A DNA stretch of 64,000 nt, from the NCBI GenBank assembly GCA_024911895.1, contig GCA_024911895.1_3948.1. One strand, given 5' to 3'. Both the position numbers and the translations under genes were made by a program. Shown in pieces: positions 10,283-64,000 of this stretch. The stretch is from a phage. The notes under the pieces are model-generated. The model was not told the DNA's origin and searched no databases. It saw nothing but the letters and a program-made list of their open reading frames with translations. The first letter of the stretch is position 1, and each line of letters starts with the position of its first letter.

Positions 10283-12274
10283 TCACTCAGTTTCAAACGG
10301 GCAGTCATCTGCATCCTCACTTAATACAGGTGGAATCGTTGAGCTTTGACGCTGTTCTTCAGTATAGACTTCGCCAGTCTCACGGTCAAATACTTCATCC
10401 TCATAATGAGGTAAAGAGTCATCATAATGGTCTTCAGCTTCACCAATACCAAACTGTTGACGAATATTTTCTGCTGCACCATCAATGTCAACACCACATC
10501 CAGAAGCTTTGATAAGGCGGCCTGTCTCAGGATTATACCAAGTGTGACCAGCAATACCAGTTGACTTACCATGACGACGACACTTAGTTAGTTTAATCTT
10601 CGTGATGTTCTTCTTAACAGGGTCTGGGTCAACCTTGTTACGCATTAACAAAATATTATTCATGGAAATCTGGAAATACGCACCAGAGCCTTTAATATCC
10701 TCTTCAGAGATATCTCCACCTTCAGAGTTGGCTTTCTGACCACCTGCGCTCTTACGAACGTGACAGACGTTCACCTGTGCATACTGGTAGCGTTTGCAAC
10801 GACGCAATAGTTCAGACAAAACTTCCTCTTCATCAGTATCTGAACGTGACAGAGCCAACGTAATAGGGTCAAGAATAATAATCTTACAGTCTAAACTGTT
10901 AACAAGATAGTCAACAAATTCCAGCAGGTTATCTTGGTCAATTGCACCTTGATGGTCTACGATATGGATACGACGACCTTTAGATAGCTCTGCATGTGCT
11001 TCCTTCAATTCATCCCAATCTCGTTCATCATAAGGAATCTCAGAAATCTGCTTGCTCAGGTGAATTGCACAGAGCATCTCCATCAACTCTTCATAGGTAT
11101 CTTCAACTGGAATTACACCAATATTGTAATCGGTTTCCTTCCAAGCAGTGTAAATCATTTCACGGGTATATGCTGATTTACCTACTGAAGATGGTGCTGC
11201 CAGAGTTGTAATCTCACCTAAACCATAACCACCATAAGTCAGCCTGTTCAAATCTCCGAAAGATTCTGGGAAAGGAATCAATGGAATCTGACCACGATTC
11301 TTCATTGCCTCAAAACCATCTGCGAAGTTCTTGATACCAGCAGGACAGTAACGAGGTGCATTGTAGATACGCTGCTTAAACCCTTCCAGAACTGTATCTT
11401 TCTCTTTATAGAACTTTGTCCACCATTCGTTAAGGTCTTTTACACCTTCTGGATACTGGAACAAACGAACCTTCTCAATAGGTAGGATACCAGCCGCCTC
11501 TTTGGTAGCTTTAGCACCTGCTTCATCGTTATCAAAGCACAAGTAAATCTCATCAAATGATGTGATGTACTGATAGTTGTCTTTGATAGACTTAATGTTT
11601 GCACCTGATGGAACAGATACGTGACAGTAATTCTTACGACGAGACTTATCTTTAATCGCCAAAGAAGTCATGTAGATAGCTGTAGCGCACTCCATCTCAC
11701 CTTCCCAGATGAATAGACGGTTGCCACCTTCTGGAGCAACCCATGAACCGAACATTGCCAGTTCACCTTTAATGTCTCCAACACCACCTGAAAAGTCTTT
11801 TAACTTTCCACGTAGATGTTCTTTTGGGTGGTCTTCTGGGTAACGGTGACGAACACGGTAGCCAACATGTTCTAGCTTGCCATCCTCATTACGTTTGTAA
11901 GTTGGATAGAAATGTGCATCAATTTCACCATCACTGTCAATGTCTACCTTGATGCCTAAGCGTTCAAGAACTTTTGCAGGAATCTTCCTGTCTTTTAAGT
12001 CCATTGCTTCAAGGTTTTCTTTTACATCGTCTAAATCCATTCCACGGAAAGTACGGTTTTTATTGTCTGAACCAGTAGAATAAGTGCTCACGATTTGTCC
12101 TTTATCAAAATCCCACTCTGGGAAACCTTTGTTACAACTAAAGCAAGTCATCGAATAAGAATCATCGTCATGATGGTAGATTGAACCAGCATCTGATGAA
12201 CCACAACGTGGACATGCACAATGACCAATAAACTGACCAGCCTCTTTCAATTTACGACCTTTAGACATTAGCAC
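10283..12274 (-). CDS. DNA primase-helicase (T7 gp4-like)
   Basis: N-terminal zinc ribbon CACPRCGSSD...CFSCNKGF, central TOPRIM-like region, C-terminal helicase with Walker A APSSVGKSAYT. Confidence 0.85.
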   Translation of the reverse strand: MLMSKGRKLKEAGQFIGHCACPRCGSSDAGSIYHHDDDSYSMTCFSCNKGFPEWDFDKGQIVSTYSTGSDNKNRTFRGMDLDDVKENLEAMDLKDRKIPAKVLERLGIKVDIDSDGEIDAHFYPTYKRNEDGKLEHVGYRVRHRYPEDHPKEHLRGKLKDFSGGVGDIKGELAMFGSWVAPEGGNRLFIWEGEMECATAIYMTSLAIKDKSRRKNYCHVSVPSGANIKSIKDNYQYITSFDEIYLCFDNDEAGAKATKEAAGILPIEKVRLFQYPEGVKDLNEWWTKFYKEKDTVLEGFKQRIYNAPRYCPAGIKNFADGFEAMKNRGQIPLIPFPESFGDLNRLTYGGYGLGEITTLAAPSSVGKSAYTREMIYTAWKETDYNIGVIPVEDTYEELMEMLCAIHLSKQISEIPYDERDWDELKEAHAELSKGRRIHIVDHQGAIDQDNLLEFVDYLVNSLDCKIIILDPITLALSRSDTDEEEVLSELLRRCKRYQYAQVNVCHVRKSAGGQKANSEGGDISEEDIKGSGAYFQISMNNILLMRNKVDPDPVKKNITKIKLTKCRRHGKSTGIAGHTWYNPETGRLIKASGCGVDIDGAAENIRQQFGIGEAEDHYDDSLPHYEDEVFDRETGEVYTEEQRQSSTIPPVLSEDADDCPFETE

Positions 12275-13277: not shown

Positions 13278-14090
13278 TTAGTGCAGTTTGTCACTAGTAA
13301 TCTGTGATTGCTCTTTTTCAGCCATAGCTGAGACTTGCTTCACAAAATCGTCACCAAAGTTAATGCGAAGCTTCTCTTCAATGATTGAAGCACCAATGTT
13401 TACCAAAACATCATTGATTGCTTGCATACTGACACCACCAGTCATCTCCTCAACGAACTCAATGGTTACACCCAACATCTGAGAAAGTTGGATTAGTGCA
13501 ACGATATTCATCATTGTAGAGATAGCAGGAATCATCAGAGCAACCTTAACCTGTAGTGGTTCTACATCAGCTACAGAATCATCTTTCACAGCTTCTGCTA
13601 AAGAGTCTTTAGTTTGCTGGATAATCTCTTTGATTCGTGGGTTTAGCTCTTCTACACCCCAATCAAGTTTTTCATATCGTGACAGCTTCTCTTCCATTCG
13701 CTTCTCAAGAGCAGCCATAACAGCACTCGTTGACGAAATTAACAGGTCAACTAGCTCATTATTATCTAAGAGCAGTAGCGAGTCTTTTTCTTCAGAGGTC
13801 ATGGCAATATAGTCATTTTTCTGCATCTCATAGAAAATGAACTCTGCAAGAGCATCAACACCTACAACGATAGATGCTAAAGCAAGTTTTTTGTCACACA
13901 GCATCATATTAACCTGTTCTGCAAAAGCACCGTTATCAGACTTGTCTTTAGGCAAGTTATAGCTTGCAGGCATAAACTGCTCTGTGTAGTTGTTTCCACG
14001 AAGAATCATAGCCATGCTTTCTACGGCATTGATTAAGAATGCTTCGTCAATACCTTTTTCTTCAAGCATCTGGTCTACAGTAGTATTCAT
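13278..14090 (-). CDS. Hypothetical protein (270 aa)
   Basis: ORF. Confidence 0.45.
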   Translation of the reverse strand: MNTTVDQMLEEKGIDEAFLINAVESMAMILRGNNYTEQFMPASYNLPKDKSDNGAFAEQVNMMLCDKKLALASIVVGVDALAEFIFYEMQKNDYIAMTSEEKDSLLLLDNNELVDLLISSTSAVMAALEKRMEEKLSRYEKLDWGVEELNPRIKEIIQQTKDSLAEAVKDDSVADVEPLQVKVALMIPAISTMMNIVALIQLSQMLGVTIEFVEEMTGGVSMQAINDVLVNIGASIIEEKLRINFGDDFVKQVSAMAEKEQSQITSDKLH

Positions 14091-14091
14091 A

Positions 14092-14514
14092 TTATTTCTC
14101 TCTCAGTTGGTTAAGTTTCTTTCTAGAACATTTTAAGTTTTCTGATGAAGAAAAGTCAAGTGTCTTTTCAGAACGTGGATAGTAATGTCTATCCCAAGAA
14201 GTTTCAACATCATTAATCAGTGACGCTAGATTACACAGGTCTGTACCACTTTGCAACTTCTTTTTAAGAGAATCTAGTAAAGCAACTGTATCTTTAGCTT
14301 TACGTCTCGCTGTAGCAACATCTTTCATATGCTCAAATACAGAGCATTTTAAGTCATCTTCATAGTTTTCAGACAACTCTATTTCATGTTGTATATCAAC
14401 CATTCTCCTGTGATGGTGAGCATATTCCCGTTGAGCAGCAATGTCAAGTTCTTCCAACTTCTGCAAAGCTCTAACAAAGTCAGCTATGTCTGGGTGAACA
14501 AACATTTTCTGCAT
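14092..14514 (-). CDS. Hypothetical protein (140 aa)
   Basis: ORF. Confidence 0.45.
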   Translation of the reverse strand: MQKMFVHPDIADFVRALQKLEELDIAAQREYAHHHRRMVDIQHEIELSENYEDDLKCSVFEHMKDVATARRKAKDTVALLDSLKKKLQSGTDLCNLASLINDVETSWDRHYYPRSEKTLDFSSSENLKCSRKKLNQLREK

Positions 14515-14690
14515 GTAAGCCTCTTTTAAGTAACTATTAAGTTTTAATCTTTTATCTTAACGTATTCTATACGTTATACTTTAAAGCTTTTTAAAAGCTA
14601 TTAAATAATCTTTTAAGAGTTTTAAAGTATCTGTATAGTTAAACTGTTAAGTAACCTTTTAAGTAAAAACCCACTTCGCAAAGATTAACA

Positions 14691-14713
14691 CCTTGTCAAG
14701 TACATTGTCAACT
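14691..14713 (+). promoter_or_regulatory. Conserved box CCTTGTCAAGTACATTGTCAAC (direct repeat TTGTCAA x2) in divergent intergenic region
   Basis: Near-identical 23-nt copy at 55698-55720; TATAAT at 14721-14726; upstream of DNA polymerase. Confidence 0.45.
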
Positions 14714-14771
14714 TGCTTTTTATAATTTTTTGCAGTAATGTATGAGGTTAATGATTTTAGAGGGAGTAAAA

Positions 14772-17471
14772 ATGGAAAACGTAGATTTTAAAAACTTACA
14801 TTTAGTTGGTGATACAGAAACTGATGGTTTACTCCTTGAGTTCACTAAAGTTCACGTAATGGCTTTCGCAGATTATAAATCTGACGATGAAGAGCCACCT
14901 GTATGGGTCTTTACAGATGAGCCTATCCTCGGTCACAAGTACACTAAGTACATTAAGGGTGGTTTACGTGAAGGTGTTGAGTTTGCGTTAAAGGCAAAAC
15001 GACTTTGTATCCATAACGGCCTCGGTTATGACTGGTGGGTCTTCAATCACATTGCACCGGATTTATGGAACTTTGATAATCCAAAATGTAAGCCGTGGAG
15101 TAATTTCTTTCAGGATTCTCTTATCCAGTCTCGTGTTCAGTGGATGGATAGACCAACTCCAAAGGGTTATAAAGGTGCTCATGGTTTGGCTGCATGGGGT
15201 GCTCGTGTTGGTGTTCGTAAACCAGAGATTGAACATTGGGGTGTGTGGAATGCAGAAATCTTCACTCGTGTTGTAGAAGATATCCGTATTAACGCCAAAA
15301 CTAAACGGGCACTTGATAATGAATATCTCAAGCTTAAGAAGTGTGGTATAGACACTTATGAAACTTACATGCGAGCTAAAGAAACATCTTTCTGGATGAG
15401 TCAACAGGCTATCAATGGCTGGAAAGCTGATAAAGAGCTTATGGAGTTCCATGTAAAGGAACTTGACAAGTTGACTAATGAGCTTGCTTCAGAGGTTGAA
15501 CCACATCTACCTCCAACTATTAAGACCAAAGGTAAAGTTACTGGAGAAGAATTTGCAAGAGCTTGGAATGAGTATGTTGAAACATTTGGTCATGCAGATG
15601 GACTGAAGAGAATCACCAAGTATCCTAAGACAAAGTATCGTCAGCAGGTACGTAACGGTGAGATGCAGACATATGAAATCAAGCCATTTGGTAAGCCAAC
15701 TACAAAGATTTTTAACATTGAAAAGAGAAATTGCTATACACCAACCAACTCTGTAACTGGTGAAGAGTACAAGGAAGGTTTTGTAGCAATGAAGGATGCT
15801 CGTGCAATTTGCAATGAGTTGAATGCAAAGATTGGTAAGAAATGCAAAGACTGGAAGCCAGTAAAAACAGTTAAAACTGTGAAGTACTATAACAGTCATG
15901 TTGTTAACCACTTTGAGCTTGAGTCAAGTCGCTACACAGGTTTGATTGATGCACCATATACACCAATTGAGTTCGAAGTTTCTCGTATGACTCAGGTAGC
16001 AGTTGTTAAAGACTACTTGAAATCAGTTGGTTGGATTCCAGATGACTGGAACTACAAGAAAGACTCAGATGGTCGTCCTGTTAAGGTTTGTCGTTTCAAA
16101 GACAACAAAAAGATGATTACCAAGCATCCTAAATGGCAGGAGATGGTTGAACGGTGTGGTTTGAGTTATGTTGAACATGAAGGTGTCCAGTACATTGAGC
16201 ATAACTGGTCTGTGAAGAAGTACACAGATTTGCTTGAGCCTTGCTTAATCCGTACTTCACCAAAACTTACTGAATCATCTTATGATACGATTGAAGGTGA
16301 GCTTGGACAGAAGATTGCTAAGTACTATACTTTGATGCACCGACGCAGAACTATTGAGAACTCAAAGGATGATGAAAAAGGTTGGTTGAACCAGATTCGT
16401 CCTGATGGTCGACTTAGTGCTGGTGCAATGGTGTTTGGTACTTCAACTGGACGTATGACACAATATGGTATTGTAAACGTACCGTCTGGTGCTGCTGTCT
16501 ATGGAGCACCTATGAGGGAGGTATGGACTTGTGAAGATGGTACAGATATCATCTCCGTAGACCAAAACTCAGCACAGCTAGTTCTCCTTTGTAACTTTAT
16601 GGGTGATGAAGACTTCACTAAAGCGGTAACTGAGGGTAAAGAGTCAGTAGAGTTCACTAAGCAAGAGGATGGCAGATACTACTGTAAGCATCTTGATAAG
16701 TATCTTAACCCAGAAACTGACAAGTATCTTCGTTATGATGCTGAGAATGACCTCTATGAAGTCTATACAGGGACTGATGCACATACATTGAACAGTATTT
16801 ACTTTGGTCTTAACAAAGAAGAGGATATTATTCTTTGTAGGGAGACACAGGATGAGGAACTTCTTCACGAGATTACAAAAGGTCGTAAGAAGAGCAAAAA
16901 TGGCATCTACGCCCTGTTATTTGGAGCCGGAGATGAGAAGTTTGCGAAAACTATCAAGGCATCATCTACGGAAGAGGGTGCGTTGACTAAACAAACTTAC
17001 TTTGTGCGTCTACCTAAGATTAAAAAACTGCTTGATAGATTAGAGGAAGACTTCAAAGCAACTAAGAAAGCACTTGAAGAGGTTTTCGGAAAAACTTCTG
17101 CAATTGCCAAAGGTGGCTATATCAAAGTTGCTGGAGCGTGGTTATGGTGTAAATCTCCACATAAGTTATTGAATTACACACTTATGGGCAGTGAGGCGCA
17201 GGTGCAGAATGAGGGTATTAACTTGGCTAACAGAGAGTTAACAGAGCGCAAGCTTACAGTTCTAAATGGTAGGAAGCCTGCTATTGGTGCTAGGTGGGTC
17301 TGTAGTTACCACGATGAGGTCTCTTTAGAGGTTCCAACCAAAGATGTACCTGATGTTAAGGAGATTATTGATAGAATGTATGGTCAAGCATCAAAAAATC
17401 TTGGATTAAAGAGTAAGACGCTTGTTACAGGCACTGGTAAGGTAGGTAAGACATGGTACGCCGTACACTAA
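14772..17471 (+). CDS. DNA polymerase, family A, with 3'-5' exonuclease domain
   Basis: ORF 14742-17471; start at MENVDF after AGGGAG; Exo I motif GDTETDGL; C-terminal polymerase region with YHDEVSLEV motif C-like. Confidence 0.85.
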   Translation: MENVDFKNLHLVGDTETDGLLLEFTKVHVMAFADYKSDDEEPPVWVFTDEPILGHKYTKYIKGGLREGVEFALKAKRLCIHNGLGYDWWVFNHIAPDLWNFDNPKCKPWSNFFQDSLIQSRVQWMDRPTPKGYKGAHGLAAWGARVGVRKPEIEHWGVWNAEIFTRVVEDIRINAKTKRALDNEYLKLKKCGIDTYETYMRAKETSFWMSQQAINGWKADKELMEFHVKELDKLTNELASEVEPHLPPTIKTKGKVTGEEFARAWNEYVETFGHADGLKRITKYPKTKYRQQVRNGEMQTYEIKPFGKPTTKIFNIEKRNCYTPTNSVTGEEYKEGFVAMKDARAICNELNAKIGKKCKDWKPVKTVKTVKYYNSHVVNHFELESSRYTGLIDAPYTPIEFEVSRMTQVAVVKDYLKSVGWIPDDWNYKKDSDGRPVKVCRFKDNKKMITKHPKWQEMVERCGLSYVEHEGVQYIEHNWSVKKYTDLLEPCLIRTSPKLTESSYDTIEGELGQKIAKYYTLMHRRRTIENSKDDEKGWLNQIRPDGRLSAGAMVFGTSTGRMTQYGIVNVPSGAAVYGAPMREVWTCEDGTDIISVDQNSAQLVLLCNFMGDEDFTKAVTEGKESVEFTKQEDGRYYCKHLDKYLNPETDKYLRYDAENDLYEVYTGTDAHTLNSIYFGLNKEEDIILCRETQDEELLHEITKGRKKSKNGIYALLFGAGDEKFAKTIKASSTEEGALTKQTYFVRLPKIKKLLDRLEEDFKATKKALEEVFGKTSAIAKGGYIKVAGAWLWCKSPHKLLNYTLMGSEAQVQNEGINLANRELTERKLTVLNGRKPAIGARWVCSYHDEVSLEVPTKDVPDVKEIIDRMYGQASKNLGLKSKTLVTGTGKVGKTWYAVH

Positions 17472-20817: not shown

Positions 20818-21030
20818 ATGGCTCTTAAAAAGTTACATCCCAGAAGCGGTTATGGTAAGATAATTGATGATACAGATGGCTTTACAGTCTTTACAGTTAT
20901 CTGTCAAGATGATTCACAGATTGAAAAGGCTCTTGATGATTATCTTAATGATGAACGTGAAAAGGTCAGAGCTACAAACATAGACTCATTAATTGATACT
21001 TCACGTAAACGGAAGAAGAAAGATGAATGA
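20818..21030 (+). CDS. Hypothetical protein (70 aa)
   Basis: ORF. Confidence 0.3.
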   Translation: MALKKLHPRSGYGKIIDDTDGFTVFTVICQDDSQIEKALDDYLNDEREKVRATNIDSLIDTSRKRKKKDE

Positions 21031-21322
21031 GGTTTTTGACCCTTATGCTCCACAAGATGATTGGGAGGCTGATAGAGAGGCTGAAATGGAGAGTTATATT
21101 TGTCCAATGGATGTAGACGAAATGAGAGACTTCGTTGCACATCGTTTTAAGAGAGAGATTAAATCCAGAGGTCTTTCTCAAGAGCAAGTCGCTAAAATTT
21201 GTGGTATCTCTCAAGCTCGTGTATCCAACATAATCCACCTCACTGGGAATGTCTCTCTTGAGTATATGTTGGAAGTGTGTGAAAAATTTGGTGTTAATTT
21301 CAATTTAAGGTTGGCAGATTAA
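20993..21322 (+). CDS. Putative HTH DNA-binding protein
   Basis: LSQEQVAKICGISQARVSNI helix-turn-helix-like segment. Confidence 0.4.
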   Translation: MILHVNGRRKMNEVFDPYAPQDDWEADREAEMESYICPMDVDEMRDFVAHRFKREIKSRGLSQEQVAKICGISQARVSNIIHLTGNVSLEYMLEVCEKFGVNFNLRLAD

Positions 21323-21323
21323 T

Positions 21324-21683
21324 ATGAAACGTGAAAACATTATCCACTCTGAAAACTTCGCATTAGGCTTTTATGGTGCACCTACTCACCTTGAAAAGTA
21401 CTACGGTGTAGAAATTCTTTCCAATCTCATTATGGCTTACAAAGATGGTAAGATTAAGCATACTGAGAAGAAACGTGTCATGGGTTATATGGCTGTAGGT
21501 TCAGCAATCTCAAACATTAAGCTGGAAACAACTAGCAGCCAGATTGTGAAAGACCACTTCATCAAAGAACTTTACCACAATCTTGATGGTGTAGATGTTC
21601 AGGCTGTTTGGCTAGATGTTGATGGTCACAACTACACAAGTTTCGTTTTCAAAAACGATGACATTAAGTGTCTGTTCCCATAA
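21324..21683 (+). CDS. Hypothetical protein (119 aa)
   Basis: ORF. Confidence 0.4.
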   Translation: MKRENIIHSENFALGFYGAPTHLEKYYGVEILSNLIMAYKDGKIKHTEKKRVMGYMAVGSAISNIKLETTSSQIVKDHFIKELYHNLDGVDVQAVWLDVDGHNYTSFVFKNDDIKCLFP

Positions 21684-23958: not shown

Positions 23959-24325
23959 TTTCAGTATTCTTTGTGTTCTTTTCAGTAATAGCTTGGAGGG
24001 CTGATACTGATTGAGCCAGATTATTTACACTGTCAGAGAATTTATCAAGAGTTTTGGTAAGTTTTGCGTTTTCACCCTTAACATTCTCTAACTGAACTTT
24101 CTGGTTCTCCATCCCTAGTTGAATCAATCTCATGTCAGACTGTAAATCACGAATAGCTGAATAATTACTTTTGGAATAATTATCTAGCTGCTGTAACTTT
24201 GTTGTGATAGACACTTCTTGTTTACCATCCGAAACTTGCATGGTGGTATACATCCCAATAACACTAAAAATACCAACTACAATTGCACCAATATTATTTT
24301 TAAAAGCTTCCTCTAGCCACTTCAT
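23954..24325 (-). CDS. Membrane-anchored coiled-coil protein (spanin-like?)
   Basis: N-terminal TM NIGAIVVGIFSVIGMY then long coiled-coil; low confidence on function. Confidence 0.3.
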   Translation of the reverse strand: MKWLEEAFKNNIGAIVVGIFSVIGMYTTMQVSDGKQEVSITTKLQQLDNYSKSNYSAIRDLQSDMRLIQLGMENQKVQLENVKGENAKLTKTLDKFSDSVNNLAQSVSALQAITEKNTKNTEK

Positions 24326-24599: not shown

Positions 24600-27149
24600 T
24601 TAAGCAGTTCTTACCCAAGCCATTAACTTATAGAACTGGTTAGTTACACTAAATGCTGAACCAGAACCTGTACCACCAGTGTCGCCACTGAATGTGTGGT
24701 TGTGTCCACCAATACCTACACCGTGAGTATGAGCATCTACCCAACTTGTTCTACCTGTCCAAGCTCTAGAGGCATAGAAGTTAACAGGAGTACCATAAGT
24801 GAAGTTATTACCTGTGAATCCTCTAGAGGCTTGTGAACCTGAGATAGCAAATGCCCCACTTGCTGTATAAAAGCTATTTGCGTCACTTCTGAAGAAACCG
24901 AAGTCGCCAGAGATTTCCATATTACCTCTGTCGTGGTCGTGAGCACCCTGACCATCTGTATACTTAGTGCCATAGTCAAACCAAGAAGTTGTTCCAGAGA
25001 AGCTATGCGTGTGTGAAGGTAAGTTACCAACAGACAACGTTACAGAATCTGAACCACCAGTTGTAGCAACATCTGAACCATTTGCTGCTGCGATTCTGAT
25101 AGTTCTACCAACACCATTATTCAGGTACGTCCAAGTTAACCCAGGAAGTGCTGTATTAGGGTTAACATTACTGTTAAACCACGTTACAATACCTACTGGA
25201 TAGATTTTATTAAGGTCTGTGGAGTCACTGATGGCCTGTGCAATCTTCTGGTCAGTTTCAGTTTTAGTGTATGCACCGATGTCTGAAGGGGTTGGTTTTT
25301 GCAAACTTGTGTAGTATTTTGCAATTGTACCCTTCACAATACCTTGCGGAGCATCATCAAATGTCTGTGGAACTTCAAACAACTGTACACTTGCATTACT
25401 AGAAGATTGAACTCTTGATGTTGTGTTATTTTGGTATGAACCAACTCTACAGTAAATGTCATAAGTATCACCAGATGTATTAACATGACCGATATCAGTG
25501 ATGATAGTATTATCTGATGTTCTCCAAGCCACGACATTTAAACCTTTCGGATAATCATTCGATGTTCGTAAAACAATCTCACACTTACCTGCTTGGTGTG
25601 GTGTATTGGCATTAAAACCTGACCCACCAAATACCTCAATGACAGCAGTGGAGGCTGATTGTGGCATAACAACAGTAGCAATTTTAGCCCATTTTTCATC
25701 GTATCCCATATTGAAGCTAGTGCTTCTGATTCTCAGGTATCTGCTATCGGCAGATGATTTGTTATAGTATCTCCCATCAATGTTAGTCCAGTCTTGTGGT
25801 TGAACCTGACCATTGATATACAGATTCTTATTTACACTTACTAACGTTGACTCAAGAGAAATCTGAGTCCCAGAAAAGCTGTTACTTAGTGTCACGTTAT
25901 TACTATCTGCACCACCAATACCAACCCACCATCTTGATACATTAGCAGTGTCCACACCACGAATATATAATGGCTTGCTCTGAGTAGAGTTTTTAATAAC
26001 TAGACCTTCGTTATCACTAACAACTGTCTGCACACCATTAAAAGTATTCATTGCATTGGTTCTTGCAATTGTACTTAATGTTGCTGCCGGAATATATCTA
26101 GAGTCAATGTTAGACCAATCAGAAGGTTGAACTTGACCAGTGATTTTTACACCCTTATTAAATGTTACACCAGACGCGTTTAATTTAATAGAAGTATCAC
26201 CCTTGTAATCATAAAGTGTGATATTAGAGGTTGCATCACCTTTACCAATAAACCACAAACCATTGTTTTCACTATCTCTTGCTAGGATGAACAAAGTATC
26301 ATTAACAGTTTTATTTTTTAAAATGATAGCAGCCCCATCAGAGTTCACGCTAACATTATTACTGAATGTGTTTAAACCACTAAAAGTATTATTACCAGCT
26401 AACTGTGCAAATCTCTGATTAGCAACTGTCTGAGTGAAGTATCTAGCATCTAAGTTAGAGAAGTCAGAAGGTTTGACTTGACCAGTGATGCTTAATGTTT
26501 TATTGAGAGCCACGACACTAGATAGAATAACTTCACAGTCTGTCTTGTGGTTGCGGATAGTAACATTATCACCCCCTGAACCATTACCGATATACCATCT
26601 ATACTCACCAGCACTATCCTGACCTCTGATATATAACGGTGAGTTCTCAGAAGAGTTTTTTAACCTAATAGCTTCACCATTTGCTTGGATAGTTTGTTGG
26701 GATGTAAAGATGTTATTTGCAGCAAGCCTTGCATATCTTGCATCATTCTCTTCATTAGTTCTCATACCAAGCTCATTAGGACTTGGCTTATTCAGAGTAT
26801 GATAAACAGTTGCTGACCTTGAAGCATCTGCAATAGTGAGTTTAAGACCATTTGAGTTAATTTTAAAAGTCTTTAAAATATCCCCAATAGTAATCTCGGA
26901 AGAGTCTGTAGGGTCAAATACTACCTTTCCACCGTAAAGCAACTTGACAATACCTAAATCCCCCGTCATAGTGCTCCCAGCAATCTGAACAAACCTTTCT
27001 AGTTTGAAGGAAGCTAAGAAGTCTTGATAGGTCATTCTACGGTCTTCGTCACCCAACATTTCAGGTCTTTTCTTAACTCTGATGTGCAATAGGTCTTCTG
27101 AACGAATTGTGTCGATTGAGTTTAATTGACTCAATTTGTAATCTGCCAT
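24600..27149 (-). CDS. Long tail fiber protein
   Basis: 849 aa, repetitive Gly/Ser/Asn-rich beta regions, C-terminal HxH motifs (SHTHSFSGTT, AHDHD, DAHTHG, GGHNHTFSG) and C-terminal AFSV...WVRTA tail. Confidence 0.7.
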   Translation of the reverse strand: MADYKLSQLNSIDTIRSEDLLHIRVKKRPEMLGDEDRRMTYQDFLASFKLERFVQIAGSTMTGDLGIVKLLYGGKVVFDPTDSSEITIGDILKTFKINSNGLKLTIADASRSATVYHTLNKPSPNELGMRTNEENDARYARLAANNIFTSQQTIQANGEAIRLKNSSENSPLYIRGQDSAGEYRWYIGNGSGGDNVTIRNHKTDCEVILSSVVALNKTLSITGQVKPSDFSNLDARYFTQTVANQRFAQLAGNNTFSGLNTFSNNVSVNSDGAAIILKNKTVNDTLFILARDSENNGLWFIGKGDATSNITLYDYKGDTSIKLNASGVTFNKGVKITGQVQPSDWSNIDSRYIPAATLSTIARTNAMNTFNGVQTVVSDNEGLVIKNSTQSKPLYIRGVDTANVSRWWVGIGGADSNNVTLSNSFSGTQISLESTLVSVNKNLYINGQVQPQDWTNIDGRYYNKSSADSRYLRIRSTSFNMGYDEKWAKIATVVMPQSASTAVIEVFGGSGFNANTPHQAGKCEIVLRTSNDYPKGLNVVAWRTSDNTIITDIGHVNTSGDTYDIYCRVGSYQNNTTSRVQSSSNASVQLFEVPQTFDDAPQGIVKGTIAKYYTSLQKPTPSDIGAYTKTETDQKIAQAISDSTDLNKIYPVGIVTWFNSNVNPNTALPGLTWTYLNNGVGRTIRIAAANGSDVATTGGSDSVTLSVGNLPSHTHSFSGTTSWFDYGTKYTDGQGAHDHDRGNMEISGDFGFFRSDANSFYTASGAFAISGSQASRGFTGNNFTYGTPVNFYASRAWTGRTSWVDAHTHGVGIGGHNHTFSGDTGGTGSGSAFSVTNQFYKLMAWVRTA

Positions 27150-55196: not shown

Positions 55197-55568
55197 TTAT
55201 TTTTTGAGAGTCGCTACAGCAGAGAACGTTGGTTTGTTATCTGTCTGAGACTGACCACCATTATCAGGAGCCTTCTTAGTGTCTGCTGCAAGTGCTTTCA
55301 TCTCACCTGCTGAGTGAGTAAAGATAGTTTTACCGACCTCAATCATGCTCTTGATAGTTACGTCATCTGTGTTTAACCCGAACTCTGCAAGCTTAGCAGC
55401 ATCCCTTGTAACAATCGCCTCAAACAACTTTGCAGCAAACTCAGCAGAATTATCAATGGTCAGTTGAGCTTTTACAAGTGAGCTTTTGTTACGAGAGCCT
55501 TTTGGTCTTCCAGATGGGTTTCCAGACTGGCCTTTTTTAAACTGGCCTTTGTTTGTTCTGTTTTTCAT
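55197..55568 (-). CDS. Hypothetical protein with GNPSGRPKG motif
   Basis: 123 aa, basic N-terminus. Confidence 0.4.
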   Translation of the reverse strand: MKNRTNKGQFKKGQSGNPSGRPKGSRNKSSLVKAQLTIDNSAEFAAKLFEAIVTRDAAKLAEFGLNTDDVTIKSMIEVGKTIFTHSAGEMKALAADTKKAPDNGGQSQTDNKPTFSAVATLKK

Positions 55569-55697
55569 TGGTATGCCTCTTATAAGACCTCTTAAAAGGC
55601 TTTTAAGATAAAAGATAGATATCCAGAAAGATATCTGTTTAAATAGCCTTTTTAGAGGAACCTTTTAAGTTATCTTCTAAGTATTTATAAGCCTACA

Positions 55698-55720
55698 CCT
55701 TGTCAAGTACTTTGTCAACA
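55698..55720 (+). promoter_or_regulatory. Second copy of conserved box CCTTGTCAAGTACTTTGTCAAC
   Basis: 22/23 identity with 14691-14713; both at minus-to-plus operon switch points. Confidence 0.45.
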
Positions 55721-55960
55721 ACTTTTTTAACTTGCAATAGTTCTTGACTTGTTGTATGGATTACTGTACCATCTTAGTTAAAGCTGTAGGTCTGCCTTGT
55801 TCTACAAAGGAGACTTAATGAGAAAATCAAATAAACCGAAGAAAGGTAAGAATACCAATCACTGTAAGGAATCAAAAAGGGTAGAGTTAATCTACTATTC
55901 ATCCTCTGAAATTGGTCTGTACCTGTTCTTTCAAAATTACAGAAGACAAGAGGATTATCT

Positions 55961-56825: not shown

Positions 56826-57197
56826 ATGAAAGCTAAGAGTGCAAAAGACTTTTATTGCTTCCTACAATCCTATATCAATTCCGTGCAAAATGGTGAAAGG
56901 TACAACCTTAATGATGTTATCCCAACACCTTTGACATGGAGACTCAGTAAATGGCCTGAAGAAGATATTACACCAACAATCGAACAGCGTACCTACAAAC
57001 CTGAAATCAATATTCCAGACTCTGAGAATCTATTATACCCAATGTTCCATATTGTTGGTCTTGGAAGATTCCTTATGGATATCCAGTATGTAATTGGTAA
57101 AGGTTATAAGGTTAAAGGTATTGTCGTTGGTGATGTATCTCCGAATCACAAAGGTTATTTTAGACTAAACGCACATTTAGAGGCTGAAAAGAAATGA
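56826..57197 (+). CDS. Hypothetical protein, paralog of N-terminal domain of the Ig-like protein
   Basis: Shared FMDxQY, KPxxxxPxSxxLLY segments with 57194-58327 N-terminus; ATGA overlap. Confidence 0.45.
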   Translation: MKAKSAKDFYCFLQSYINSVQNGERYNLNDVIPTPLTWRLSKWPEEDITPTIEQRTYKPEINIPDSENLLYPMFHIVGLGRFLMDIQYVIGKGYKVKGIVVGDVSPNHKGYFRLNAHLEAEKK

Positions 57198-58327
57198 TTA
57201 AAGCAAAGACTTACCCAGACTTCAAAGAGTTTGTGAAGGGCTTCATTGCAAACGTAAAGGCTGGTAAGAGATATGATTTTAGAACATATCAAGAGGCTAT
57301 TTTACCACTCACCTATAGTTCGTATTGGCCTGAAGCTGATATTGCAGAAGTTAAGAAGTTTGACTACAAACCAGACTACAAAGTTCCATTTAGTGATGAG
57401 TTGCTTTACAGCGTTGGTGCTCAAATGAGAACTTCTGACTTCTTCATGGACTTACAATATGCAATTATCAATGGTAAAGACGTTGATACAGTTTATTGTG
57501 AATGGTTGGCAAGGGTTAAACCATTCTCAATGTTGAATGCTAAGTTGAAGGATGCTATCAAGCCACCAGCAATTACTCAGCAACCAACAGGTCAAACAGT
57601 CAATGAGGGTGGCACACTTACTCTAAGCATTCTAGCAACTAACGCCACTGGATATCAGTGGAAAAAGGATGGTGAGGACATCCCTAGCGCCAATTCTGCA
57701 ACTTATACAAAACAGGCAGTAGCACCTTCTGACGCTGGTTCATACACTTGTGTTGTATCTGGAGATGGTGGAACAAGTGTTACCTCAGATGCAGCAACAG
57801 TGACTGTGAACGCACTACCTGTGATTACCAAGCAACCTTCTAACCAGACTATTAATGAAGGTGGAAACATCAACTTAGCAGTTACTGCAACAGGTGCAAC
57901 TGGTTACCAATGGAAGAAAGATGGCTCTGACATTCCTTCGGCTACAGAAGCTACCTATAGCAAGTCTGGCGCTCTGCCAGCAGATGCAGGTTCATACACT
58001 TGCGTCGTAACAGGTGCAGGTGGTTCTGTCACTTCTAGCCCTGCAACCATCACTGTGAAAGCTTTACCAGTTATCACTCAACAGCCAACCAATCAAGAAA
58101 TCACTGAAGGTGAGACCTTAACGCTGAATGTTGTGGCAACAGGTGCGACAGGTTACCAATGGAAGAAAGGTGAGGAAGACATCCTCGATGCAACTACTGC
58201 AACTTACACCAAAGAAGGTGCAACCGCTGCTGATGCAGGAAGCTACACCTGTGTAGTTACTGGTGCAGGTGGCTCTGTAACATCCAATGCAGCAACAGTT
58301 ACAGTTAACCCAGCAGGGGAGGCATAA
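57194..58327 (+). CDS. Protein with three tandem Ig-like domains
   Basis: Three repeats of about 82 aa each containing ATGYQWKKDG...AGSYTCVVTGAGGS; N-terminal 130-aa unrelated domain. Confidence 0.6.
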   Translation: MIKAKTYPDFKEFVKGFIANVKAGKRYDFRTYQEAILPLTYSSYWPEADIAEVKKFDYKPDYKVPFSDELLYSVGAQMRTSDFFMDLQYAIINGKDVDTVYCEWLARVKPFSMLNAKLKDAIKPPAITQQPTGQTVNEGGTLTLSILATNATGYQWKKDGEDIPSANSATYTKQAVAPSDAGSYTCVVSGDGGTSVTSDAATVTVNALPVITKQPSNQTINEGGNINLAVTATGATGYQWKKDGSDIPSATEATYSKSGALPADAGSYTCVVTGAGGSVTSSPATITVKALPVITQQPTNQEITEGETLTLNVVATGATGYQWKKGEEDILDATTATYTKEGATAADAGSYTCVVTGAGGSVTSNAATVTVNPAGEA

Positions 58328-62879: not shown

Positions 62880-63441
62880 TGGTGTGATAGATATGGAAAA
62901 AGATAACTTAAAAGAGGTTGAAGGTAACTATCTAGTCCTTGACTGGAAGGACGTTCGGGAAGCACTCTCCGAAGAAAATCTTGACTGGTTTGAACAAATT
63001 ATCTTTGCAGTACGTCATAACAGAGAGACTGTAAATGGTAAAGAGCCATTAGAAGGAATCTTTGTAGACAAGTCTTACCCGTTCTATGAAGATACTTTAC
63101 AGAAAGTTAAGATGTACTTTAGACAGAAGAACCGTAAAGTGGTCACTATGGTATCTCTTGGTGGACAGAGTATGTCTGTGATGGAAGATATCAACCCTAA
63201 GAGGCCGAGTAAAGGTATCTGTATAAAAATCACAGGGCATGAAGAGTATATCTCAGTGAATGACTTTAGCTCATTCTGTAATGGTTCTGCTGTCTTTAAT
63301 GGGTTTCACTATGATATCCGAGTGTACCCAATCAAGGGAGATGATATCATGATGCAGGTATTTGATAACAACAATGGCTTTACTCATTTTTATCAGACAA
63401 CCAAGTCATCACTGAAGACAGTTCTGGAAACACTGGTTTAA
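62848..63441 (+). CDS. Hypothetical protein (197 aa)
   Basis: ORF. Confidence 0.4.
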   Translation: MQYQLTKFYDNGVIDMEKDNLKEVEGNYLVLDWKDVREALSEENLDWFEQIIFAVRHNRETVNGKEPLEGIFVDKSYPFYEDTLQKVKMYFRQKNRKVVTMVSLGGQSMSVMEDINPKRPSKGICIKITGHEEYISVNDFSSFCNGSAVFNGFHYDIRVYPIKGDDIMMQVFDNNNGFTHFYQTTKSSLKTVLETLV

Positions 63442-63479
63442 AATATCTTAAGAGCCTCCTTAATTGGGGGCTTTTTAAT

Positions 63480-63960
63480 TTTTATAAAATTTTATCGGTT
63501 GTCCCAACCTCTGGGTCACCATCATATGTGAATAAAATATCTATCCTTCTTAACAGCCTTCTTAATCTTACTCTCTATATATAGTTATATAGTACTATAT
63601 AGTATCTTAGTATCTATCTAGTGGTCTTAATAGACCCTCTGTATAGCCCTTCTAAACACTCTTCTAACAAGCCTTCTTAACAATCTATACAATCACCTTA
63701 ACCATCTCTCTATAGCCTCTTAGAAGCCCCTATACACCTCTTAATCTCTATGTCACATAGATGACACTCTATAGGTGTTCACTAGGTGCTACTAAGCCTC
63801 TATATAGACTGTTTTAACAAACTTAACAGGAATATCTTTACAGACCTTATCTCACAAGGTCTAACACGGTACTAACAATGTATCTTATAAGCCTGTTATT
63901 ACCTGTATTTTAGAAAGACTGTATAGGTAATTATTCAGATTTTTAAAATTTTTATAAAAT
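63480..63960. repeat. G-poor, CT-rich low-complexity non-coding region with short reiterated motifs
   Basis: No ORF of 60 aa or more; plus strand nearly devoid of G over long stretches; recurring CTTCTTAA, CTATATAG, TCTCTATAG units. Confidence 0.5.
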
Positions 63961-64000
63961 AGGACTATCAAGTCATTTTTTAGGGTCTTTGAAGGAACTC

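Follow-up and report, generated by a model that had tools for sequence, protein, structure and literature searches.

We analysed a 64,000-nucleotide (nt) stretch of phage DNA (assembly GCA_024911895.1, contig GCA_024911895.1_3948.1; hereafter referred to as the window), focusing on a box repeated in two intergenic gaps where minus-strand genes give way to plus-strand genes. The window belongs to the genus Felixounavirus (Felix O1-like, Ounavirinae), with ~98% identity to known isolates. A sequence search with a 3-kb stretch around the box matched 262 phage records (identity up to 98%), nearly all of them Escherichia, Salmonella, Shigella or Citrobacter phages, whose organism names or taxonomy lines point to Felixounavirus. 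Its orientation is reversed with respect to the usual genome map, e.g., that of the close relative AYO145A (NC_028825). In the first gap (site 1), the minus-strand genes end at 14514 and the plus-strand DNA polymerase gene runs from 14742 or 14772; in the second (site 2), the minus-strand genes end at 55568 and a small plus-strand open reading frame (ORF) runs from 55818. The minus-strand operon starting at 14514 encodes a deoxynucleoside monophosphate (dNMP) kinase, a primase/helicase and ribonucleotide reductases, and the one starting at 55568 encodes a DUF5681 protein, an RNA-binding protein, tRNAs and structural genes. Searches of the flanking genes against Pfam and PHROGs gave no helpful functional hint beyond DUF5681, 'RNA-binding protein' and 'minor tail protein'. 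Comparison of the downstream proteins of the two sites revealed no paralogy, the two being mutually unrelated, and the duplication is therefore limited to the regulatory DNA.

The pattern CCTTGTCAAGTACWTTGTCAAC has exactly two exact matches in the whole window, both on the plus strand (14691-14712 and 55698-55719), and none in 100 dinucleotide-preserving shuffles (0 expected by chance), which agrees with the claim of an earlier sequence-only reading that a repeated box marks two divergent switch points. That reading had described a 23-nt box with 22/23 identity; the repeat stands, but the motif given spans 22 nt, and its copies are identical at 21/22 positions, or at 21/23 over 14691-14713 and 55698-55720, where the last base is T versus A. 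The shared block continues leftward, so that the site-1 box on the minus strand (14688-14712, reading GTTGACAATGTACTTGACAAGGTGT) is identical at 24/25 positions to the site-2 box (55695-55719, minus strand, reading GTTGACAAAGTACTTGACAAGGTGT), and a repeat search joined the two places over 35 nt at 86% identity (14688-14722 and 55695-55729; family D13). The segment said to precede both boxes is likewise there: AACCTTTTAAGT occurs exactly at 14653-14664 and 55659-55670 on the plus strand, 26 and 27 nt left of the boxes.

Read on the minus strand, the box is GTTGACAWGTACTTGACAAGG, i.e., two perfect sigma-70 -35 hexamers 12 nt apart (GTTGACA-ATGTAC-TTGACA-AGGTGT as the reverse complement of site 1, and GTTGACA-AAGTAC-TTGACA-AGGTG as that of site 2), and zero-mismatch TTGACA-N6-TTGACA is found at these two places only within the window. 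Each box is probably the -35 element and spacer of a leftward host sigma-70-type promoter on the minus strand, a reading built on the sequence elements, their geometry and their conservation across relatives. At site 1, the promoter-distal TTGACA (14706-14711) would serve as the -35; TAATCT lies 18 nt downstream and forms an extended -10-like element with the TGT before it (14682-14690), and the A-tract AAAAAGCAAG (14712-14721), directly upstream of the -35, is possibly UP-element-like. At site 2, the distal TTGACA (55713-55718) would pair with TAGGCT (55690-55695), which lies 17 nt downstream and directly follows a TG, and the A-tract AAAAAAGTTG again stands upstream of the -35 (55719-55728). 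Both proposed -35 elements, read from 14711 to 14706 and from 55718 to 55713, match TTGACA at 6/6 positions, and upstream of the minus-strand starts at 14514 and 55568 no promoter-like element comes before the boxes. The RNA polymerase holoenzyme of E. coli or Salmonella (E-sigma-70) would initiate near 14675 and 55683, driving the operon from 14514 at site 1 and that from 55568 at site 2. This layout resembles canonical sigma-70 promoters of E. coli that carry an A-tract upstream in its perfect TTGACA, 17-18-nt spacer, TAnnnT, TG, A-rich tract and position at the head of an operon, but differs from them in the weak -10 (TAATCT, TAGGCT) and in the second perfect TTGACA, which lies in the spacer and is conserved across genera. 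Sigma-70 promoters with UP-like A-tracts are used by virulent coliphages that rely on the host polymerase, e.g., as T5 early promoters, and an A-tract followed by TTGACA, N16-18 and TAnnnT is also the layout of ~20 other promoter-like sites in the close relative AYO145A.

We further compared 28 site-1 and 27 site-2 loci (55 in all) from IMG/VR, including Moogle-like and SUSP-like phages, with flanking proteins 78-93% identical. TTGACA-N6-TTGACA was present in 55/55 loci and was followed by TAnnnT at a spacer of 18 nt at site 1 and of 17 nt at site 2. Compared position by position, the loci showed no change in the A-tract, in either hexamer or in the outer bases of the -10 (T, A and the closing T), but did differ in the bases between the hexamers and in the inner bases of the -10. 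At site 1, the distal hexamer was unchanged in 20 distinct sequences and stood 18 nt upstream of TAATCT or TAGTCT in 28/28 loci; the proximal TTGACA within the spacer (14694-14699, minus strand) and the A-tract were invariant, 4/6 nt between the hexamers varied, and the -10 kept its T, A and final TCT with A or G at the inner base. The base after TG was T or G, matching the expectation for the 'n' of a TGn motif. At site 2, the distal hexamer was unchanged in 14 distinct sequences and stood 17 nt upstream of TAnnnT in 27/27 loci, and the proximal TTGACA (55701-55706, minus strand) and the TG before the -10 were invariant. The 6 nt between the site-2 hexamers varied (AAGTAC, AAGGAC, TTCCTC, AGCCTC, AGGGGA, AATGAC), as did the inner bases of the -10 (TAGGCT, TAGCCT, TAAGTT, TAGTGT), its T, A and final T being fixed. 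In sigma-70 promoters, the TATAAT-like -10 stands 17 +/- 1 nt downstream of the -35, and T-12, A-11 and T-7 are its bases of greatest importance. A TAnnnT at fixed spacing together with invariant hexamers and -10 ends thus points to a -35/-10 pair on the minus strand, and this conservation pattern is the signature expected of a functional one. Taken together, the proposal of a paralogous regulatory region at the minus/plus switch points, with the 7-mers as functional units and a promoter involved, was borne out. The tandem TTGTCAA motifs, taken as half-sites in that proposal, are the reverse complement of TTGACAA, i.e., perfect host -35 hexamers on the minus strand.

The rightward operons appear to be served by promoters of their own, back-to-back with the boxes. 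A plus-strand promoter for the DNA polymerase operon, TTGCTT-17-TAATGT, is predicted at 14713-14741; its -10 stays TAnnGT in relatives (TAAGGT, TAGGGT, TAGTGT) with a varying spacer, and a Hafnia phage carries TTGCAA-17-TACTAT in its place. A promoter scan placed that of the plus-strand small-gene operon at 55744-55772 (TTGACT-17-TACCAT), which is invariant in all relatives. Judged from these elements, each switch point is a pair of back-to-back divergent promoters, the box being part of the leftward one. The start of the DNA polymerase gene itself is annotated in relatives at ATG 14742, directly after the predicted -10 (14736-14741), and would therefore fall upstream of the predicted transcript start; this ATG is missing from Moogle-like and SUSP-like relatives, and ATG 14772 (MENVDF...), preceded by GAGGGAG, is conserved. 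ATG 14772 is thus the more likely start on sequence comparison.

The sequence-only reading had instead let the box drive the switch to the plus-strand genes. In such a case, the box would be a plus-strand element, namely a phage-specific promoter or an activator site that replaces the -35 in the manner of a pho box or MotA box, acting on the rightward operons via TATAAT or TAACTT. A TAnnnT does lie 9 nt after both boxes (TATAAT at 14721, TAACTT at 55729), and the TGTCA direct repeats resemble PhoB-type boxes. However, TATAAT (14721-14726) lies in the region's most variable stretch and is lost in Moogle-like and SUSP-like relatives, the site-1 hexamer becoming GAAACT, GTGTCG, GAAGAT, CATAAA or CAAAAA, and most of the diverged site-2 relatives have lost TAnnnT from that offset, whereas the minus-strand -10 stays TAnnnT in the 55 loci. 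A plus-strand promoter using these unconserved hexamers was rejected. PhoB pho boxes have an 11-bp period and, ~10 nt downstream, a -10 in the same orientation; here the period is 12, or 10-13 in relatives, and no conserved -10 exists on the strand on which the box could be read as a pho box. Moreover, the rightward promoters at 14713-14741 and 55744-55772 are separate and conserved, a third copy of the box in relatives faces along a co-directional block, and the paper describing the Felix O1 genome (Whichard et al. 2010, PMC3185647) reported neither a phage RNA polymerase nor an apparent T4-type factor changing the specificity of the host polymerase. We therefore regard a plus-strand role of the box as extremely improbable. 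The proposed phage-specific promoter, which would combine a non-host motif with a phage-encoded factor, also found no support, the motif being the host sigma-70 -35 consensus; among the ten neighbouring proteins screened, one generic helix-turn-helix (HTH) protein was the only hit of this kind. Other candidates were discarded as well: TGCTTT beside the box stands at the wrong distance for a T4-style MotA box, relatives do not keep the T4-late-like TATAAATA found at site 2 (55683-55690, minus strand), and pho box, integration host factor (IHF) and sigma-54 readings gave no fit by inspection.

Next, we looked at more distant relatives. The DNA polymerase of the Hafnia phage Zyzzx is 60% identical, and in its genome the intergenic double TTGACA sites number exactly two, one at each orthologous junction: TTGACA-GAAC-TTGACA-AGGGGTT-TATTGT and TTGACA-AACAC-TTGACA-TACCCT-TACTCT. 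The distal hexamer is 17 nt from TAnnnT in both, with a gap of 4 or 5 nt between the hexamers rather than 6. In Erwinia phages, site 1 has only one TTGACA, 17 nt from TACATT, and site 2 has CTTTACA-17-TACACT, which is weaker; elsewhere these phages have one double-hexamer promoter (TTGACA-TTCTAC-TTGACA-GGGGC-TAAAGT). In the Erwinia phage Coenus, the double-hexamer promoter (11438-11500) occurs only at an early-region site comparable to a third Felix-like copy. This third copy is located beyond the window, in a block of early genes that share one direction (AYO145A 13453-13560), and reads TTGACA-N7-TTGACA-TTGG-TAACTT, then GGGGGTTT, then CTAAAAGG, CTTAAAAG, CTTTATAG and CTTAAAAA at 11-14-nt spacing. 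It was found in 20 Felix-like contigs of IMG/VR, a count that shows presence rather than invariance given that the search pattern demanded both hexamers. The two copies in the window sit at intergenic switch points, but the third shows that the box is not confined to them. With three copies in a genome, two of them in the window, the box is too rare to define a temporal class, yet more frequent than expected by chance.

The reading of the box as a host-type promoter is not new, because both sites had been listed before. The Felix O1 paper divided the genome into four transcription blocks with divergent points at genes 40/41 and 96/97, gave a promoter P41 as TTGACA(N15)TATAGG at 21515-21541, and reported no similar sequence in the 96-97 gap (PMC3185647). 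In the Felix O1 sequence, P41 begins at the site-2 distal hexamer; it is orthologous and on the same strand, but was paired with TATAGG at a 15-nt spacer, a pairing available in Felix O1 alone. The AYO145A record (NC_028825) annotates both boxes as promoters on the same strand, site 1 at 65801-65830 and site 2 at 24198-24232. The latter feature (35 nt) starts at the distal TTGACA of site 2 and runs to TATAAA, giving a 23-nt spacer that conflicts with the record's own N15-18 rule; a better fit is TAGGCT at 17 nt. Neither the Felix O1 paper nor the AYO145A record mentions that the hexamers are tandem, that the sites are paralogous or that they share a leader, and the literature searched contained no discussion of these points and no directly relevant precedent for tandem -35 elements.

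Several points weigh against an ordinary leftward promoter. The -10 hexamers are weak, matching TATAAT at 3/6 positions, and a simple promoter scan consequently called neither site. Mapped transcript 5' ends or RNA sequencing of Felix O1-like phages were not found in the literature searched. The standard promoter model gives no reason for an invariant second consensus hexamer in the spacer. Finally, reverse transcription PCR timing in Felix O1 puts the genes beside both junctions at 25 min, not among the earliest, which would fit the need for an additional factor.

The second hexamer is the least ordinary part of the leftward promoters. The proximal TTGACA lies 4-7 nt from the -10, is invariant in the 55 loci and recurs in Hafnia and Erwinia phages, and is evidently under selection. 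Its use as an alternative -35 was ruled out: as read from the sequences, a TAnnnT 16-18 nt downstream of the proximal hexamer is absent from all six copies taken from three genera, site 1 among them, so that the proximal hexamer is not a second productive -35. Since the conserved unit is exactly the target of sigma region 4, we tentatively suggest that the proximal hexamer may give sigma region 4, or a factor that acts on this region, a further place to dock, and could thereby tune the occupancy or timing of these promoters with a weak -10.

Alternatively, the box, or at least its proximal hexamer, could be an operator, in which a phage or host protein bound to the two TTGnCAA repeats switches the leftward and possibly the rightward promoters. 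Such control could act on top of the promoter function, and as TTGACAA is almost its own reverse complement, the box offers both direct and near-inverted repeats. An operator would account for the constancy of two hexamers across 55 loci, despite the position of the proximal one within a normally unconstrained spacer, and is in line with the recurrence of the double hexamer at both junctions of the distant Hafnia phage, with -10s as weak as those of factor-dependent promoters and with a temporal control of the phage that is unexplained. The phage also encodes an HTH_3 (Cro/C1-type) protein (20993-21322, plus strand), a small protein in the polymerase-side operon that is present in Felixouna-, Moogle- and SUSP-like phages. 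On the other hand, the gap between the hexamers is 6 nt at sites 1 and 2 of Felixounavirus, 7 in the third copy, 4 or 5 in Hafnia and 6 in the Erwinia copy, and the distance from the proximal hexamer to the -10 also ranges from 4 to 7 nt, a poor geometry for a rigid dimer. The HTH_3 protein, the sole candidate regulator checked, matched 261 records, none from a Hafnia or Erwinia phage, although the Hafnia phage keeps the double hexamer; its positional equivalent there is unrelated, and it was rejected as the factor binding the box. In addition, the conserved unit coincides exactly with the sigma-70 -35 consensus, and in some relatives the CTTGnCAAG palindrome that surrounds the proximal hexamer is disrupted. 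The variable hexamer spacing makes a rigid dimeric regulator unlikely. The dimeric regulator site envisaged by the sequence-only reading is thereby weakened by the 4-7-nt gap and by the absence of the HTH regulator from the Hafnia phage, and we consider an operator unlikely, albeit the best placed of the alternatives to the leftward promoters.

Known systems share parts of this arrangement. In the lambda PR' promoter, a -35-like TTGACT is bound by sigma region 4 during loading of Q. The likeness is that a promoter at the head of a long, terminator-containing operon has a second -35-like hexamer near its -10. The lambda hexamer, however, either overlaps the -10 or comes after it, and it acts together with a Q site and a -10-like element that induces pausing; the hexamer described here is placed upstream of the -10, and neither a Q-like gene nor a pause element was identified. 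Activators bind direct repeats in the -35 region at lambda CII sites (TTGC-N6-TTGC) and at PhoB pho boxes (TGTCA-N6-TGTCA). These too place short direct repeats about one helical turn apart over the -35 region, in promoters whose core element is weak, but at a fixed spacing and in such a way as to replace or straddle a poor -35, in contrast to the consensus -35 hexamers at 10-13-bp spacing seen here.

Downstream of the leftward promoters, the putative leaders run from the predicted start near 14675 to the start codon at 14514 (14515-14675, minus strand) and from near 55683 to that at 55568 (55569-55683, minus strand). In all three paralogous promoters, an array of CTTAAAAG-like octamers on the sense strand begins ~17-19 nt after the -10. 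The shared segment belongs to this array: its site-1 copy (14653-14664), reading ACTTAAAAGGTT in the minus-strand leader, includes the first octamer 17 nt past the -10, and the site-2 copy (55659-55670) lies 19 nt past the -10 on the minus strand. The motif CTTWWAAG occurs 25 times in the window (8.6 +/- 2.8 expected) and forms only two clusters there, one per leader, with the site-2 cluster at 55579, 55591, 55600 and 55662 (array span 55579-55669). The site-1 leader, at 18% GC the AT-richest 120 bp of the window, contains seven sense-strand CTWWAHAG octamers (14663-14656, 14651-14644, 14638-14631, 14617-14610, 14586-14579, 14541-14534 and 14530-14523), i.e., seven in 200 bp compared with 55 on that strand over 64 kb. 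The first three are 12-13 nt apart and the spacing is irregular beyond; the last overlaps the Shine-Dalgarno sequence (CTTAAAAGAGG). Both leaders fold somewhat better than shuffled sequences (z-scores of -2.6 at site 1 and -3.1 at site 2). In the site-2 leader, a long hairpin (z -3.1) is predicted to enclose AGATATC-N6-GATATCT, with one compensatory C-G to U-A change through a U-G intermediate across relatives. This leader is almost invariant even where the downstream protein is only ~80% identical, and the whole ~300-bp site-2 intergenic region is more conserved than the flanking genes. Rfam returned no known RNA family for either intergenic region. The DUF5681 protein, the product of the first gene behind the site-2 promoter (55197-55568, minus strand), has a basic N-terminus, KGQSGNPSGRPKGSRNK, whose GRP core we take to resemble an AT-hook, and might bind AT-rich DNA such as its own leader. 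Judging by these features, the leaders could act in the control of translation, in the stability of the transcript, in antitermination or in the initiation of replication.

Two of these roles can be put as a reading of the whole module, namely a transcription-activated replication origin, or a site where a factor for processive antitermination or sigma remodelling would load and aid terminator read-through. T4 oriF and oriG and the T7 primary origin combine a promoter with an unwinding element, and lambda PR' offers a precedent for Q loading at a -35-like hexamer. In the window, the AT-richest leader lies between the polymerase and primase/helicase operons and holds a dense octamer array; the module occurs three times per genome, its double hexamer and octamer array are found together in three genera, and the leaders are more conserved than the neighbouring genes. 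The operons also hold many intrinsic terminators that the polymerase would have to pass. However, no initiator or antiterminator gene was identified. GC-skew minima at ~14.5 kb and ~55.4 kb coincide with the gene-strand switches, but such turns are expected from gene orientation alone, and the skew was rejected as origin evidence for this confounding. Moreover, the octamers overlap Shine-Dalgarno-like AAGAGG and could simply be signals for translation or stability, leader folding is only modestly above that of shuffled sequences with one compensatory pair, and Rfam gave no match. We therefore hold an origin or antitermination site to be very unlikely. A related and likewise speculative idea, to which we give only slightly more credence, is that the tandem -35 promoter and the octamer leader form a dedicated control module, present thrice per genome in at least three Ounavirinae genera, in which a phage factor would first remodel the polymerase and the proximal TTGACA would then capture sigma region 4, by a mechanism of the lambda Q or T4 AsiA type.

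Several further features were observed in the window. A single-hexamer promoter, TTGACA-17-TAATAT, lies inside a GGGTAT...ATACCC hairpin at 53659-53693 (minus strand) and is the third, weaker member of family D13; near-identical sequence at such a site was listed as the bidirectional terminator t42 in Felix O1 (PMC3185647). Repeat families D1-D7 with GGATTCGAACC-type motifs (~48000-53500, minus strand) correspond to the tRNA gene cluster annotated in AYO145A. Three tandem coding repeats of ~250 bp each occur at 57731-58312 in the ORF 57194-58327, and three of ~330-345 bp each at 25768-26494 in the 849-amino-acid ORF 24600-27149. At the right edge of the window, 63400-64000 belongs to an AT-rich, gene-free stretch of ~1.5 kb between convergent blocks (AYO145A 14878-16434), which carries further small CTTWWAAG clusters.

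Felix O1-type phages are widely used for typing and biocontrol of Salmonella and E. coli, and their temporal gene control is unknown (PMC3185647). As promoters, the two sites are routine; they show annotators the direction of the two major leftward operons in Felix O1-like phages and put right the strand taken by the sequence-only reading. If the second TTGACA and the repeat-rich leader are a regulatory device, they would represent an unusual use of a consensus -35 element and an entry point into the temporal control of Felix O1. Should the control module prove true, polymerases starting from these promoters would be active later in infection or resistant to internal terminators, and the module would address how Felix O1-type phages time their transcription without a polymerase or sigma factor of their own.

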